Positions 1-64,000 of a DNA stretch of 64,000 nt are shown here, in pieces. The notes under the pieces were generated by a model that saw only the letters and a list, made by a program, of their open reading frames with translations, searched no databases and was not told the DNA's origin. Position 1 is the first letter of the stretch, and each line of letters opens with the position of its first letter. The translations under genes were made by a program, and so were the position numbers. Origin of the DNA: a virus; the IMG/VR virus record IMGVR_UViG_3300045988_172839, positions 1 to 64,000 of that record, one strand, 5' to 3'.

Positions 1-60
1 GTTCGAACCAGTGACATCATGATTAACAGTCATGCGCTCTACCAACTGAGCTATGGTGGA
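1..60 (-). tRNA. tRNA-Asn (anticodon GTT), 3' part cut off by window start
   Basis: Reverse complement reads TCCACCA-TA-GCTCAGTTGGTAGAGC-G-CATGA-CTGTTAA-TCATG-ATGTC-ACTGGTTCGAAC. This gives an acceptor 5' half, D arm, anticodon stem-loop with GTT and the start of the T arm. Confidence 0.8.
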
Positions 61-366
61 TTGAACCCCCTAATGTACCCGTTTGGTAAGAAGCTGACAA
101 CTACTAATTAAACGAAAGTAACATAAGGAAGAGTTTGGTTTAAATAGAAGCGAAACTAGATTTCTCATTCGATACCCATTGACAAAAGAGGTATCAAATT
201 AAAGCAAGTTCAAAATAAACCAAAGTTTGTAAACGAACGCGTTTCGTTTGTTTATTGTTCTTTTTGTCTTTTGTGGATTTCTGTTCCTAAAACTAGAATT
301 AAACATTTCGAAAACAAGAACAGGGTCCGCTAACTAAAATCTGCGCGCTAAGAGAATAGTTAGTTA

Positions 367-439
367 TGACTCGGACTGGGTTTGAACCAGTCACCCATCA
401 ATTAAAAGTCGATTGCTCTTCCAACTGAGCTACCGAGTC
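367..439 (-). tRNA. tRNA-Lys (anticodon TTT)
   Basis: Reverse complement reads GACTCGG-TA-GCTCAGTTGGAAGAGC-A-ATCGA-CTTTTAA-TTGAT-GGGTG-ACTGGTTCAAACCCAGT-CCGAGTC-A. It folds into a full 73-nt cloverleaf by hand. Confidence 0.85.
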
Positions 440-466
440 TAAAGGAGAAACCATTTAAAATGGTTA

Positions 467-540
467 TGGTGCGAGACAGAATCGAACTGCCGACGCATGG
501 AGCTTCAATCCAACGCTCTACCAAACTGAGCTATCGCACC
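467..540 (-). tRNA. tRNA-Phe (anticodon GAA)
   Basis: Reverse complement reads GGTGCGA-TA-GCTCAGTTTGGTAGAGC, anticodon loop TTGAAGC, T arm GGCAGTTCGATTCTGTC and acceptor TCGCACC-A. Confidence 0.85.
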
Positions 541-1069
541 GAAAAGGGATACCCTCAACACCTTTGGTATCTTGTATAGGAGAACCATGAACCCATACAT
601 TTTTAGACCTCAACCTAGTACATTCGGATTGAGATTGTCTGTGTTTTTCGTTAGTTAGAAAATGTACTTCTTAACTAACTGGCTTTAAAAACGACTTCTT
701 CGACAAATTTGATACCCATAAGTGGAGATGTCTCCATCGTTTTGCAACTGAGTTTTATTCTTGGTTTACTGAACGGGTTTGTTCTTACTCTGAACCGTCT
801 GCACATGTTCTGCTTGAAAGCAGTAAACCTCACCAACCTTATCTTAACTAGCTTTAGCCTGCTAATCGAACCGTTGGCGTCACCTCGTATCGCTGAGGGG
901 CGTTAGTAGAGGACTAACCTTCTACTTAGGTGTCCTTACTTCTAAGAGTAAGAATCTCAAGCATTCACACAACGGTTACACATTATGCTTGTGCTATAAC
1001 GATTTAACAACCTTTCACAGTTGCTAAACCCAAGTTGCAATGAATTACTTCAAAACAATCTTTCCGGCA

Positions 1070-1142
1070 TGACTCGAACTGGGCTTGAACCAATGACCTT
1101 CTGCTTGTAAGACAGATGCTCTCCCAACTGAGCTATCGAGTC
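1070..1142 (-). tRNA. tRNA-Val (anticodon TAC)
   Basis: Reverse complement reads GACTCGA-TA-GCTCAGTTGGGAGAGC-A-TCTGT-CTTACAA-GCAGA-AGGTC-ATTGGTTCAAGCCCAGT-TCGAGTC-A. Confidence 0.85.
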
Positions 1143-1441
1143 TAAATATAGCATTATGTAACTATCCAAAACGTGTCCATCACTTTTTTTGTTAGTTTCG
1201 AACCTAACTTAAAAAGCTCCTCCACACATCATCCGTTTTAGCTACCACCCCTTCACAATAATTCAAAAGTCAGCTACACTTCATCACCATTATTGTCGCC
1301 CTAGTTCAGTGATTCGAGCGGGGAAATAGTTACAAGTTCATCATTTTTGATTTCTTAAACGCTTTGTCATTGTTTAAGAAACTACACTTCCTTTATGTGT
1401 CTCAGAAAGACAATGATGTGGGTTTATACCCAAATCTATAA

Positions 1442-61509: not shown

Positions 61510-61596
61510 AAAGACACCTCCTTTCTTATTACAACTAAAGTGTAACACAAAAAGGTATATGTATCAAGTTTAGTATTAAAATTTTTAAAAATTTTG

Positions 61597-62826
61597 TTAG
61601 AAATTTAAGTTATTTGTAATCTGTTGGAAACACAACTCAGTTAAGCGTTTCATAATCGATTCAAAAGCGCTACGTTGTTGCAATTTACGAGACTCTTTAT
61701 CTGTTGCGTAGCTTTCAATCAAAGCGAGGATACCGAGTTGAGATTGTTCTCCATTATCATTCACAATCGTCTCTTCTGAGTTCAACCCTAAATCTCTCAT
61801 CAGTCTTCGACTTGAAACACTGTAAACCGTTGTAATCCCTCTACCTGAAACCGCTGCAGTGCGCTTATACGTTCTATCCAAAATCACATACAAGTCAATT
61901 CCGGGACTCATTAAAGCACTCATAACACTTGTAGTTGGAGTTGTTGTGTACATCTCAGACAACAAGTACAACTTAGAAGCTTCACGTGTGATATTACTAG
62001 AGTCTACCTTGCGTAAAGACTTGTAACGAGCATCTACATAATCAGTAGCTTGGTCTATTACAATCAATTTTGCTTGTATCTCTGGCACTTTCGCTAACCA
62101 ATCAATATAAGCCGACAAAAATGAGGTCAGATACCGAGTGGGAGCTTGCTCCCTAATCAACAAGACCTTTGAGTTACCTGTGTAACTATACTGAGTGTAA
62201 GTGTTAATAGAACCAAATCCACCAAATGAAGAAGTTTTTAAGTTATTGATTTCATCTTCTTGTTTTGACAACTGCTCCTCTGCAATTTTCAAGCGACTTG
62301 AAGCAGTTAAGAGAAAAGCTTGTAATTCCTCATTCAACTCTGCTGAGAACACAACTTCCTGTAAGACATCACTCAACTGCTCATAAGCCATTGAAATTTT
62401 ACGCTCTAACAGTTTTGGTTCATCTGCTAATTCCCCTCGAATGTATTCATCAACCAAAGTGAAACTATCCGCTAACTGAGTTAATTCATCTGTTTGATTG
62501 TCCATCTCTCGACTTGACATAAACTCTAGCAAATCAGAAAAACCCTCAGTATTATCTAACAAGGAACTATCTTGAATAACATAAGCTCCTACTGTTTTCA
62601 TCGTCTCTAAAACGATACGAGAGGGAGTTTCAGTTATATAAGCAATCTTAGTTAAAGAGTTGTCTCTCATAGCATTTAAAATAAACACTAAGAAGTCAAA
62701 GTCTTTATCTGTGTACGACTCAATAATGAGAGTCGTTTTCATAGTAATCCGTTCTATCTGTTTAATACTAGAAACAGTGGTACAACTAGGATACCGAACG
62801 TTTTTTGTTGTTAAAATGTAGTCCAT
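61597..62826 (-). CDS. Hypothetical protein
   Basis: 409-aa ORF with a central coiled-coil-like segment. Confidence 0.55.
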   Translation of the reverse strand: MDYILTTKNVRYPSCTTVSSIKQIERITMKTTLIIESYTDKDFDFLVFILNAMRDNSLTKIAYITETPSRIVLETMKTVGAYVIQDSSLLDNTEGFSDLLEFMSSREMDNQTDELTQLADSFTLVDEYIRGELADEPKLLERKISMAYEQLSDVLQEVVFSAELNEELQAFLLTASSRLKIAEEQLSKQEDEINNLKTSSFGGFGSINTYTQYSYTGNSKVLLIREQAPTRYLTSFLSAYIDWLAKVPEIQAKLIVIDQATDYVDARYKSLRKVDSSNITREASKLYLLSEMYTTTPTTSVMSALMSPGIDLYVILDRTYKRTAAVSGRGITTVYSVSSRRLMRDLGLNSEETIVNDNGEQSQLGILALIESYATDKESRKLQQRSAFESIMKRLTELCFQQITNNLNF

Positions 62827-62841
62827 GTTTTATCAAACCAC

Positions 62842-63492
62842 CTACCTAGACTGAGCTAATTGTAAGACTGCATAGATTTCATTATCTAACTTAGAAACCG
62901 CTGCTAACTCTTGTTTTGTGAGTTTCTTCTTGCCGAAAACCTTCCCTCCATAACTAAAAGTTTTAATTACAGAACCTTTACTAGCTATTGGCTTTGGAGG
63001 TGTAAATGCAGGCTCTTGCGAGGATACCGCAGACTGCTCCGTTCCATATTTAACAACCGCTTTCATATTCTTCTTACTAGAATGTTCTAAACGAATAGTG
63101 TCTAAAGAACTCTTACACAAGTTGTTTGCAATCAAATCCACATTTACTTGCTCATTTGTTTGTAGCAAATAGTCTGTATAAATCGGCTCACTAAAGAAAC
63201 TGTAATAAGAATCCACTACTTCCAAGTCTGCAGATTCAAAATATCGACCAAAGAGTACAACTTCAGTAGTTCGAGCGTGATCCATTAAAAAAGTACGCAA
63301 GTTGCTAAACTCTTGCGGTGAATTTACATTTACACAGTTAATAATCAAACGCTCACAACGAAGAGCCTTACGACTCGCCATGTTCAGAAAAGCACCGATA
63401 GAATTGAAACCTTCCACCTCTTTCAAACCATGCGACTCCCTCACTGCATTTACTACTTGCTCACTCTTCTCTCCAAAAATTAAACCAATCAT
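62842..63492 (-). CDS. Hypothetical protein
   Basis: 216-aa ORF. The N-terminal ~120 aa have an alternating beta/alpha pattern (MIGLIFGEK...RLIINCV...VVLFG) that could be receiver-like. This is unverified. Confidence 0.5.
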   Translation of the reverse strand: MIGLIFGEKSEQVVNAVRESHGLKEVEGFNSIGAFLNMASRKALRCERLIINCVNVNSPQEFSNLRTFLMDHARTTEVVLFGRYFESADLEVVDSYYSFFSEPIYTDYLLQTNEQVNVDLIANNLCKSSLDTIRLEHSSKKNMKAVVKYGTEQSAVSSQEPAFTPPKPIASKGSVIKTFSYGGKVFGKKKLTKQELAAVSKLDNEIYAVLQLAQSR

Positions 63493-63518
63493 CTAAAGAC
63501 ACCCTCTACTTTCTTATC

Positions 63519-63977
63519 CTAAAATAAGTCCAATTCATCTGAACTTTCAATTTTATTCACTTGACGACTACTAGAGCCACCAAACAAATCTTCCGCACTT
63601 ACATCAGCACCTTTATTCACAGATTTTTGAGAGTTATCCACAGGTGTTGACAACTCTTCCGCAGAAACATCTGTTTCAAGCACACTTGTTAAGCCACTTG
63701 CTTGTTTTGTTGAGCTACTTTCTGTTCCAAACAAGTCCAACACTTCTGCTTGGGTTTGTTTTGCTTTCTCTTTACCTTTTTTCTTGGTTTTCTTAGGTTG
63801 AGTTTTCGCTTGTTCTGCAGATACCCTTGCTTGTGCTTGTTGTTTTCTGTACTGCTCTTCTTGTTTCAAGCGAGCTTCTGATAGAGAAGTGTTCACTTGT
63901 TTTCTACGGTTTTGGGCGTCTCCTAACCACAATAGACGAAGACTGGAACGCTCAGACTTCTGAACTGCTTGGTTCAT
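63519..63977 (-). CDS. Hypothetical lysine/serine-rich protein
   Basis: 152-aa ORF. Its start overlaps the upstream stop codon (ATGA). Confidence 0.5.
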   Translation of the reverse strand: MNQAVQKSERSSLRLLWLGDAQNRRKQVNTSLSEARLKQEEQYRKQQAQARVSAEQAKTQPKKTKKKGKEKAKQTQAEVLDLFGTESSSTKQASGLTSVLETDVSAEELSTPVDNSQKSVNKGADVSAEDLFGGSSSRQVNKIESSDELDLF

Positions 63978-64000
63978 GGCTTCGGTAACTGAAAACTCAG
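63974..64000 (-). CDS. 3' end of an upstream CDS that continues beyond the window
   Basis: Open frame ...LSFQLPKP* ending in a TGA that overlaps the ATG of 63519..63977. Confidence 0.3.
   Translation of the reverse strand: MSFQLPKP

Follow-up and report, generated by a model that had tools for sequence, protein, structure and literature searches.

The class of signal considered here is known: a polar oligomer, maintained by selection, guides a machine that reads one DNA strand. Chi sites belong to a host enzyme and a host genome, and are short over-represented words, co-oriented with replication, that a moving enzyme reads on one strand and that are neutral in the opposite orientation. FtsK-orienting polar sequences (KOPS), SpoIIIE recognition sequences (SRS), and the TraB sites of Streptomyces are strongly skewed polar words that steer FtsK-like motors. 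DNA uptake sequences (DUS) of Neisseria and uptake signal sequences (USS) of Haemophilus occur about once per kb, are written into genes at the DNA level, and are more evenly spaced than random, while phage T5 carries sequence-specific interruptions in a single strand. Here, we describe a heptamer, SGGTATC (S being C or G), in a 64,000-nt stretch of DNA (positions 1 to 64,000 of IMG/VR record IMGVR_UViG_3300045988_172839; this whole stretch is called the window), which we read from its sequence as part of a giant (~240-kb) plasmid-like extrachromosomal element of oral streptococci. Apparently new is the combination of 99% polarity without a switch, one copy per 0.3–0.6 kb, under-dispersion, restriction to a giant element, and a split primase; we found no description of such a case.

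Primases provide the other close comparison. The sites of T7 primase, AtTwinkle, and Firmicute DnaG (5′-CTA-3′) are read on the single-stranded lagging-strand template by a zinc-binding domain and include one or two cryptic bases on their 3′ side. T7 primase uses 5′-GGGTC, 5′-TGGTC, and 5′-GTGTC, in which the C is cryptic, and 5′-GGGT followed by this C yields a pppACCC primer (PMC2910064). AtTwinkle reads 5′-(G/C)GGA-3′ with two cryptic bases, a property ascribed to its divergent zinc-binding domain (PMC5737085). The SGGT of the element's word is identical to the primer-coding portion of the best T7 site, and a zinc-binding domain, a DnaG-type catalytic domain, and a DnaB-like helicase are all encoded on the element. 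Unlike known primase sites, which have three to five bases and are frequent by chance, the element's word has seven, has visibly shaped the genome, and would be served by a primase divided between two proteins. Among the readings of SGGTATC considered here, we rank a private priming signal of the element's split primase first, although we hold it to be less likely than not.

Exact counting gave 113 copies of GATACC on the + strand of the window and 8 on the − strand. The sites are the following:

1..64000, − strand: core GGTATC array of 113 copies, 101 of them SGGTATC, read 5′→3′ on the coding, G-rich strand and extending past both window ends
+ strand G of GATACC, part 1: 171, 548, 711, 1521, 1869, 2405, 3022, 3466, 3835, 4077, 4820, 5700, 6623, 7164, 7473, 8147, 9259, 9554, 10134, 11608, 12042, 12303, 12613, 12957, 13448, 14023, 14488, 14737, 15045, 15736
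+ strand G of GATACC, part 2: 16329, 16997, 17577, 17927, 18407, 18854, 19637, 20449, 21118, 21705, 22216, 23065, 23387, 23792, 24107, 24558, 24991, 25792, 26206, 26550, 26671, 27186, 27604, 28169, 28588, 29083, 29727, 29936, 30442, 31702
+ strand G of GATACC, part 3: 32428, 32767, 32978, 34456, 35244, 35859, 36545, 37383, 38038, 38860, 39553, 39888, 40351, 41002, 41351, 41629, 42156, 42727, 43041, 43437, 43776, 44120, 44985, 45330, 45732, 46163, 46895, 47291, 48719
+ strand G of GATACC, part 4: 48953, 49888, 50348, 51043, 52195, 52610, 52895, 53831, 54348, 54670, 55262, 55423, 56191, 56578, 58150, 58755, 59153, 59778, 61041, 61729, 62130, 62790, 63023, 63820
GGTATC on the + strand (reverse copies, n = 8): 190, 566, 15481, 35032, 43613, 44588, 46817, 61394

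GATACC is followed by C in 62 copies and by G in 39 (89% S), and preceded by G in 49/113; for the heptamer GATACCS, the strand counts are 101 (+) and 1 (−). A first-pass annotation of this DNA had listed at least ~110 forward and ~8 reverse copies, with C or G as the next base in ~90% and G often preceding, and these figures agree with the exact ones; the seven reverse positions it gave all lie within 4 bases of exact sites, and 15481 is the eighth. That annotation named five candidate roles (translocase guide, Chi-like signal, primase initiation sites, nick sites, and methyltransferase target) and did not choose among them. Written on the coding strand, the word has seven informative positions, the first being S at −1, and pyrimidines are mildly preferred at +6. 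Beyond these −1/+6 preferences, no extended consensus, second half-site, or hairpin was found around the window copies of SGGTATC.

The GC content of the window is 37.7%, and its + strand is C-rich throughout, with a GC skew of about −0.15 in nearly all 2-kb bins. Markov models of order 1–3 predict 7–20 copies of the hexamer and 2–6 of both heptamers together. Among coding-strand 7-mers ranked by Markov score, GGGTATC (z = 31–42) and CGGTATC (z = 23–32) are the top two, SGGTATC is enriched 10- to 30-fold in the favoured orientation, and the excess persists at orders 1 to 3. With 8 reverse hexamers against 7–12 expected, the reverse orientation is neither enriched nor avoided. These counts refute escape from Type III or Type ISP restriction, in which cutting needs head-to-head sites (as for EcoP15I sites in T7), and likewise a codon or composition bias, and we give this pair of explanations a negligible chance. 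The asymmetry of the word and the co-orientation of its copies would suit restriction escape, but such escape should remove one orientation without raising the other 10- to 30-fold, and the reverse orientation is at expectation instead of depleted. A composition bias is contradicted by the Markov results and by the presence of the word in all frames and in non-coding DNA.

The copies are also more regularly spaced than chance allows. Gaps in the GGTATC array of the window have a mean of 568 bp and a coefficient of variation (CV) of 0.51, compared with 0.99 for random placement; the observed CV was reached in 0/20000 simulations. There are 3 gaps <200 bp where ~33 are expected, and the longest gap measures 1572 bp against ~2980 expected. 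An exponential gap model is rejected (Kolmogorov–Smirnov p = 1.4e-9), whereas the gaps agree with a gamma distribution (shape 4.35; p = 0.80), so that the even spacing claimed earlier from ~3 gaps below 200 bp stands. Neither helical nor codon (triplet) phasing of the gaps was detected in the window. The weaker form SGGTATT, with 26 copies on the same strand, lies on average 274 bp from canonical copies, compared with 178 for random positions (P = 0.001); its concentration in the middle of gaps, which it tends to fill, makes it appear partly functional.

Selection writes the word into the G-rich strand via synonymous codons and into non-coding DNA. Judged by the first G of GGTATC, 40, 32, and 32 copies start at codon offsets 0, 1, and 2, respectively, and 9 copies lie outside open reading frames (ORFs) of at least 100 aa, tRNA spacers included; the motif is therefore not a codon artefact, as the first-pass annotation had argued. 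GGT-ATC spells 40/80 Gly-Ile pairs where codon usage predicts 6.4, and one third of the ATC codons in the window sit within the word. Motif density is 1.79/kb in genes and 1.45/kb between them, relative positions within genes are flat, and 16/25 genes shorter than 500 bp contain no copy. A per-gene placement rule was sought in the window and not found; gene boundaries are ignored. Site positions are only partly kept between orthologous genes, which points to a turnover of sites under maintained density. Two features of the window illustrate this kind of selection:

367..1861, − strand: array of six tRNA genes (ARAGORN), with spacer copies at the usual density at 171, 548, 711, 1521, and 1869
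59643..61548, − strand: IS607-like insertion, comprising a serine resolvase (60862–61548) and TnpB (59643–60869; Pfam, PHROG), with two SGGTATC

Copies of the IS607-like insertion in sister genomes encode a protein that is 87–89% identical and occupy other sites, all co-oriented with the element. Within the family, the copies differ by 11–13% at the DNA level, yet the same two SGGTATC are kept in all of them; relatives from outside the family have other bases at both sites. The constant orientation suggests strong selection against reverse insertions. IS607-like copies were seen in the window and in L003, L010, L038, L039, L040, and L042 (L numbers denote loci of the family), and further TnpB genes occur in L062, L225, L038, and L307.

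All convincing genes and the six tRNA genes of the window lie on the − strand, and within it the earlier observation that copies point with transcription is correct. As a rule it fails, owing to a single gene:

L257, 4539–5744, − strand, and L272, 4746–5963, − strand: reverse-oriented, full-length C5 DNA methylase (Pfam E = 1e-86), the two copies being 90% identical and from two genomes

This methylase, the only real opposite-strand gene among 239 family loci, has the word three times on the global strand and not once in its own sense. Its three Gly-Tyr-Arg are all spelled GGA-TAC-CGA or GGA-TAC-CGG. In genomes of this kind, arginine is seldom encoded by CGA or CGG. The sites in L257 run regularly across the reverse gene (3966, 4474, 4928, 5324, 5669, 6334), and the chance of three co-oriented copies within 1.2 kb is ~0.002, for one gene family and three sites. 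Global-strand GC skew is 0.07 and 0.00 in the reverse gene against 0.16 and 0.13 in its flanks, a reduction which indicates that the strand itself accounts for about half of the skew. The word's polarity follows the DNA strand of the replicon, not messenger sense, and its proposed placement on the lagging-strand template holds only if replication runs with transcription and GC skew.

These observations bear on a signal that would act in RNA or be coupled to transcription, with GGUAUC in transcripts, or the non-template word, recognised by an RNA-binding protein such as SpoVG or by RNA polymerase. All window copies do lie in the sense of transcription, and a SpoVG homologue is conserved beside the FtsK-like gene. 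The reading is largely refuted, and in our view extremely improbable, because the array crosses the reverse gene with its spacing unbroken and in the global sense, and because placement disregards gene boundaries, leaves most short genes without a copy, and is about as dense between genes as within them.

To follow the array beyond the window, we used the helicase gene that marks the element family:

44718..46310, − strand: DnaB-like replicative helicase, 530 aa (Pfam DnaB_C)

This helicase is encoded on 230–251-kb contigs from human oral metagenomes, and the window itself equals bases 10305–74304 of ERZ989710 contig k127_74389 (238,733 bp). A sister genome with a 99% identical helicase, IMGVR_UViG_3300007995_000002, was recovered to 202,001/242,615 bases by IMG/VR queries with chimeric edge-gene proteins (composite loci L022, L038, L062, L065, L080, L184, L185, L191, L225, L229, L243, L270, L271, L287, L307, and L318; also L005 and L037 for the whole-replicon view). 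These 202 kb contain 345 GGTATC against 17 GATACC and 313 SGGTATC against 4 in reverse, with 14–25 copies per full 10-kb bin, positive GC skew in all bins, and no oppositely oriented stretch. Their gaps (n = 341) have a mean of 582, a CV of 0.57, and a maximum of 1992, and 5.3% are <200 bp compared with 29% expected; the density, polarity, and even spacing first noticed in the window are thus reproduced in the rest of the replicon. The remaining part of the sister genome corresponds to window positions 1–34.7k and 56.3–60.1k, which are co-oriented too, and the window and sister assemblies are circular permutations of each other. Together, these data give one polarity round the whole circle, with ~415 copies and without an origin/terminus switch. 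Such a single orientation implies unidirectional replication or another one-way process. That genes, GC skew, and motif are essentially all in one orientation is unusual for a genome of ~240 kb.

A motor that pumps an entire replicon in one direction would likewise require one orientation round the circle, and the window encodes a candidate:

54580..57069, − strand: FtsK/SpoIIIE-family ATPase, 829 aa (Pfam FtsK_SpoIIIE E = 1.2e-12; PDB FtsK motor E = 8e-9)

The gene adjoins that of a VirB4/TraG-like ATPase (57264–59444), with a CHAP hydrolase just past the window, and its product is probably a type IV secretion coupling protein. As a translocase guide, the word would load this ATPase, or another motor such as an SNF2 protein, or keep it directional while 240 kb are pumped one way in transfer or segregation; the strong skew and the presence of an FtsK-family ATPase recall KOPS, SRS, and TraB sites. 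Other KOPS features, namely a strand switch at the origin and dif, a spacing of one per several kb, reading by a gamma domain, and counter-selection of reverse copies, were not found here. The 829-aa protein has no Pfam match to the winged-helix Ftsk_gamma domain at E ≤ 0.001, only to the motor domain; reverse copies are not depleted, although misoriented guides should be harmful; and the density is 10–40 times that of KOPS or SRS. For the coupling proteins of Gram-positive conjugation, no reading of sequence is known. The translocase proposed as a reader in the first-pass annotation is weakened by the missing gamma domain, the undepleted reverse copies, and the constant orientation, and we regard it as rather unlikely.

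SGGTATC is a trait of the family, which comprises dozens of contigs from human oral metagenomes with a GC content of 35–42% and, by its helicase, 16 clusters of 42–99% identity on contigs of up to 281 kb. Counts of the word on the two strands are 40:0 in a relative with 75% helicase identity, 77:2 (one per 280 bp) at 63%, 70:0 at 50%, and 43:5 and 44:5 at 49–50%; the most distant relative (42% DnaB identity) still has 51:3 in 14 kb. Densities range by lineage from one copy per ~280 to ~900 bp, and gap CVs in relatives from 0.53 to 0.73. In the window and four motif-rich relatives, the word is the top-scoring coding-strand 7-mer, with 1.8–3.6 copies/kb and 99% on one strand. One close lineage is sparser (24:2), and two, L036 (IMGVR_UViG_3300045988_184003) and L180, have nearly lost the canonical word; here, GC content is 33–34%, GC skew is very strong (0.38–0.46), and SGGTATT is ~3-fold enriched. 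A co-evolved variant motif GGTATT in L036 was considered and rejected, as its Markov enrichment is only ~2–3-fold and not an outlier. L036 and L180 offer a natural comparison in the search for the reader. In L013 (4495–8907), L035 (4449–8860), and L182 (4030–8534), the SNF2 and helicase genes are separated by pairs of gyrase/topoisomerase IV-like subunits, which the window lacks at that place.

The element is found in no GTDB representative genome: searches with the helicase family against GTDB species-representative genomes gave no match. The host is therefore assigned from two kinds of encoded protein, HU and an adhesin of the antigen I/II family:

2468..2743, − strand: HU (Bac_DNA_binding) of streptococcal type, 82–88% identical to HU of many Streptococcus species and less so to that of other Firmicutes
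L229, 10815–17072: LPXTG adhesin of the antigen I/II family, 2085 aa
L229, 17388–20081: second LPXTG protein, 897 aa

The predicted LPXTG adhesins support a streptococcal host and would fit a role in adhesion. In 460 kb of DNA from 24 genomes of this presumed host genus Streptococcus, sampled as ~20 kb per genome round the HU gene, the two strands carry 112 and 119 copies of the word (0.25/kb/strand, equal to background), and in 1.06 Mb from other Firmicutes they carry 167 and 156. Since streptococcal chromosomal DNA shows neither excess nor polarity, the signal belongs to the element, and the earlier framing as an element signal and not a host signal is upheld. In this privacy, and in its 99% confinement to one strand, the word is unlike uptake sequences, which occur in both orientations across a whole host genome and serve natural transformation.

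The same counts weaken a Chi-like role, for a host enzyme only. In this reading, the word on a 3′-ended strand would switch a helicase-nuclease, host RexAB/AddAB or element-encoded, from degradation to repair and so protect a replicon whose forks break with one polarity. Being short and polar, lying on the G-rich (leading-sequence) strand, and having neutral reverse copies, the word looks as such a signal would, dense sites with few long gaps would minimise DNA loss, and the 5-mer Chi of Bacillus subtilis is of comparable density. The element also encodes a 5′–3′ exonuclease and two further candidate repair proteins:

L270, 13088–15304: UvrD-like helicase
L184, 13506–15065: RecJ-like DHH protein

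However, if the host is a streptococcus, the word is not its Chi, and no AddAB/RecBCD-type helicase-nuclease was found among the ~95 element proteins scanned for families (part of the ORFs; many without a family match). Moreover, the array is under-dispersed and several-fold denser than Chi sites of 7–8 bases, and SGGTATC does not resemble the Firmicute Chi words AGCGG, GCGCGTG, and GAAGCGG; in line with the first-pass annotation, it is not known to match a Chi or KOPS sequence. A Chi-like role is in our judgement unlikely.

The neutrality of reverse copies indicates that the reader sees one strand only, and one-strand reading, strand-bound polarity, and restriction to the element together point to a machine, encoded by the element, that reads one particular strand in single-stranded form. 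Of the machines encoded, only the primase is known to recognise template sequence on that strand, for which it uses a zinc finger. Its two candidate components are separate proteins:

41763..42389, − strand: DnaG-type CHC2 zinc-binding protein, 208 aa, domain at residues ~58–109; candidate template-reading subunit of a split primase
L065, 18807–19577, + strand: DnaG-type catalytic Toprim protein, 256 aa (DnaG core over motifs II–V: 2au3, 1eqn, 1dd9; Pfam Toprim_2)

What had been annotated as a stand-alone primase zinc finger proves to contain a true DnaG-type zinc-binding domain, as judged by Pfam (Zn_ribbon_DnaG, E = 1.2e-7), PDB zinc-binding domains (2au3, 1d0q), and an AlphaFold model (predicted local distance difference test score 81; best fold match 1d0q, probability 0.99). 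CPFH...CFGCG is invariant in this 208-aa family, the flanking parts are novel, and homologues occur in this element family only. The 256-aa Toprim protein was found by a motif scan and is 79–100% conserved in 26 family loci. The presence of separate zinc-binding and DnaG-type catalytic proteins points to a split primase, and with it the proposal that the word marks priming sites has gained support. No helicase-binding domain was seen on either protein. The 481-, 221-, and 310-aa neighbours of the zinc-finger gene were considered as the primase catalytic domain and rejected, as they are not primases; the 310-aa protein has a D...E...D pattern that looks RuvC-like by eye, with no match in a profile search of solved structures.

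As a priming signal, the word would be read as single-stranded DNA on the lagging-strand template during unidirectional replication, and probably also on the transferred strand at conjugative entry. The zinc-binding protein (41763–42389) and the 256-aa Toprim protein would form the reader and work with the DnaB-like helicase; by analogy with T7, the primer made on SGGT would be pppACCS, leaving the 3′ ATC as an extended cryptic recognition element. Starting at the heptamer only would make priming specific to the element's own DNA. A primase with this restriction would oblige the genome to keep a site within every ~1.5 kb, which would explain both the excess and the even spacing; a need of this size, to which close pairs add nothing, is in keeping with an event that must recur along the molecule. 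In its full form, the priming scenario holds that the split primase and the DnaB-like helicase start primers only at SGGTATC, that the 240-kb element has been rewritten, largely synonymously, to offer a site every 300–600 bases on the lagging or transferred strand, and that this makes replication and post-conjugation second-strand synthesis self-specific, with the spacing setting Okazaki-fragment length. We consider this full form possible but doubtful.

Several points weigh against the priming scenario. We know of no DnaG-type or T7-type primase that needs more than 3–5 template bases, and the model demands ~13 bits of specificity. The sites of T7 primase show neither strand bias (161 vs 159) nor even spacing (gap CV 0.92–1.0), unlike the element's word; since they leave no genomic footprint, there is no precedent for genome-wide selection of priming sites. 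In length, too, the seven informative positions exceed the 3–5 bases of described sites, the longest precedent being two cryptic bases (PMC5737085). The motif-poor L036 and L180 retain the zinc-binding protein and the whole replication module, and the Toprim gene lies tens of kb from the zinc-binding gene, so that an interaction of the two products is assumed. The direction of replication is read only from GC skew and gene orientation, rival readers (FtsK-like, ParB-HNH, methyltransferase, SNF2) are all encoded as well, and the support for priming is computational. A literature search on the word itself and on selected priming sites found nothing relevant. About a fifth of our expectation goes to an explanation outside those listed here.

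Two further rival readers have been proposed. The first would be a nickase, with relevant genes as follows:

36687..38330, − strand: ParB_N + HNH nuclease, 547 aa, candidate nickase (Pfam HNH E = 1.2e-8, ParB_N weak; HNH like McrA-type, PDB 6ghc)
18353..22291, − strand: family-A DNA polymerase with 3′–5′ exonuclease, 1312 aa (Pfam DNA_pol_A E = 7.9e-48, DNA_pol_A_exo1)

In this reading, the ParB-HNH protein would nick one strand at the word, and ligase, family-A polymerase, and 5′–3′ exonuclease would process the nicks, as starts of strand displacement or as a strand mark. Nicking enzymes typically use asymmetric words of 5–7 bp, and T5 has nicks in one strand only. The element shares with T5 a family-A polymerase, a 5′–3′ exonuclease, a ligase, HNH nucleases, and tRNA genes, and its word, known from assembled sequence alone, resembles the T5 interruptions in being sequence-specific and confined to one strand. 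A ParB_N-HNH protein is present in several lineages, with a DNA ligase adjoining in some relatives; a syntenic HNH-domain protein occurs in L001–L004, L009–L011, L013, L181, and the motif-poor L180, and L036 has a 533-aa ORF there. Retention of an HNH protein at this position in L180 speaks against a nickase, T5 nicks are few and not evenly spaced, unlike the copies of the word, and ~415 nicks in one strand would leave the molecule very fragile. Furthermore, unlike T5, the element shows no phage structural genes among the scanned proteins. We hold nick sites to be improbable.

The second would be a methyltransferase:

26373..28211, − strand: candidate N6-adenine methyltransferase of the gamma class, 612 aa (DASCGTG as motif I, NPPY at residue 194; Pfam N6_Mtase weak, E = 0.017)

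Here, the word would be the one-strand target of the enzyme and would mark old and new strand, or self and non-self, for another function of the element. The gamma-class motifs are followed by a long C-terminal region of ~360 aa, possibly a target-recognition domain; enzymes that methylate one strand of asymmetric 6–7-bp words are typically built in this way, and both strands of the word contain adenine. Target status alone, however, explains neither the 30-fold excess nor the even spacing nor the polarity, and the several C5 methylases on the element suggest ordinary anti-restriction roles. A methylation mark therefore seems quite improbable.

With respect to gene content, the scan revealed functions of several kinds. 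Replication and repair are represented by the family-A polymerase, whose only relatives are distant phage ones with <30% identity, the DnaB-like helicase, a clamp-loader subunit, the UvrD-like helicase, the RecJ-like protein, and the 5′–3′ exonuclease. Genes for maintenance and transfer include an actin-like partition protein, the FtsK-like ATPase beside VirB4-like and CHAP proteins, and Wadjet JetC/JetD-like proteins. Modification and mobility are represented by several C5 methylases, of which one contains an intein, and by TnpB/IS607 in many copies. Signalling proteins comprise a Ser/Thr kinase, a PP2C phosphatase, and an FHA protein, and a signal peptidase, HU, and the 2085-aa LPXTG adhesin are surface or host-like proteins. 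Further features are:

L184, 15087–16385: actin-like (ParM/MreB-like) partition protein
L307, 18134–19450: clamp-loader subunit
L038, 1670–8496: Wadjet-like anti-plasmid module, with a split SMC-like JetC (SbcC Walker B motif) and JetD (DUF2399/JetD_C)
L185, 10846–13071: intein-interrupted C5 cytosine methylase (Intein_splicing and Hint domains)
Window, 8381–16294: signalling cluster of a eukaryotic-type Ser/Thr kinase (8381–10045), a tail-lysozyme-like hydrolase, an HD-domain protein, a PP2C phosphatase (14338–15108), and an FHA/DUF6382 protein (15113–16294)

The predicted maintenance and replication functions appear plasmid-like, and the cluster at 8381–16294 looks like a signalling module. 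The presence of a Wadjet-like module on the element itself raises the question of how a 240-kb circle escapes self-cleavage. The same genomes are present in IMG/VR as 200–284-kb contigs listed as viral, yet none of the ~95 scanned proteins belongs to a phage capsid, portal, terminase, or tail-sheath family. In addition, 20 kb of the window gave no megablast match to GenBank phages or PLSDB plasmids, and the window helicase no tblastn match to phages.

Earlier studies describe comparable saliva elements. A long-read study reported a plasmid-like "phage" of >200 kb with type IV secretion and segregation genes. The NCBI copy of our element, L324 (GCA_015471965.1, BNJU01003638.1, 241,421 bp), is a contig from a long-read saliva metagenome and not an isolate; its genes are in short fragments, which we guess to result from long-read errors left uncorrected. 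This copy may correspond to the "plasmid-like jumbo phage" mentioned in bioRxiv 10.1101/2020.03.13.989996. Inocles have a GC content of 24–32%, the marker InoC with a replication-relaxation domain, and a switch of GC skew and gene orientation at the origin and terminus (PMC12340149). Like Inocles, the elements described here are giant and circular, come from saliva metagenomes, have a streptococcal host, and carry LPXTG proteins, a signal peptidase, insertion sequence (IS) elements, and tRNAs. Unlike Inocles, the family has a GC content of 35–42% and no origin/terminus switch, and the InoC marker PF13814 had no match among the scanned proteins.

Polar words such as Chi, KOPS, and the uptake sequences are rare legible footprints of machines on whole genomes, and each known one has revealed a mechanism. 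For an element family that has so far barely been described, the word says that its members replicate or move one way only and carry a reader that scans one strand. If this reader is the split primase, primase specificity would have shaped a genome, of which we know no earlier case, and this would hint at how a mobile element could reserve its replication machinery for its own use. Independently of the reader, the word could serve as a signature for detecting and binning these elements, for orienting their contigs, and for finding DNA that they acquired recently.

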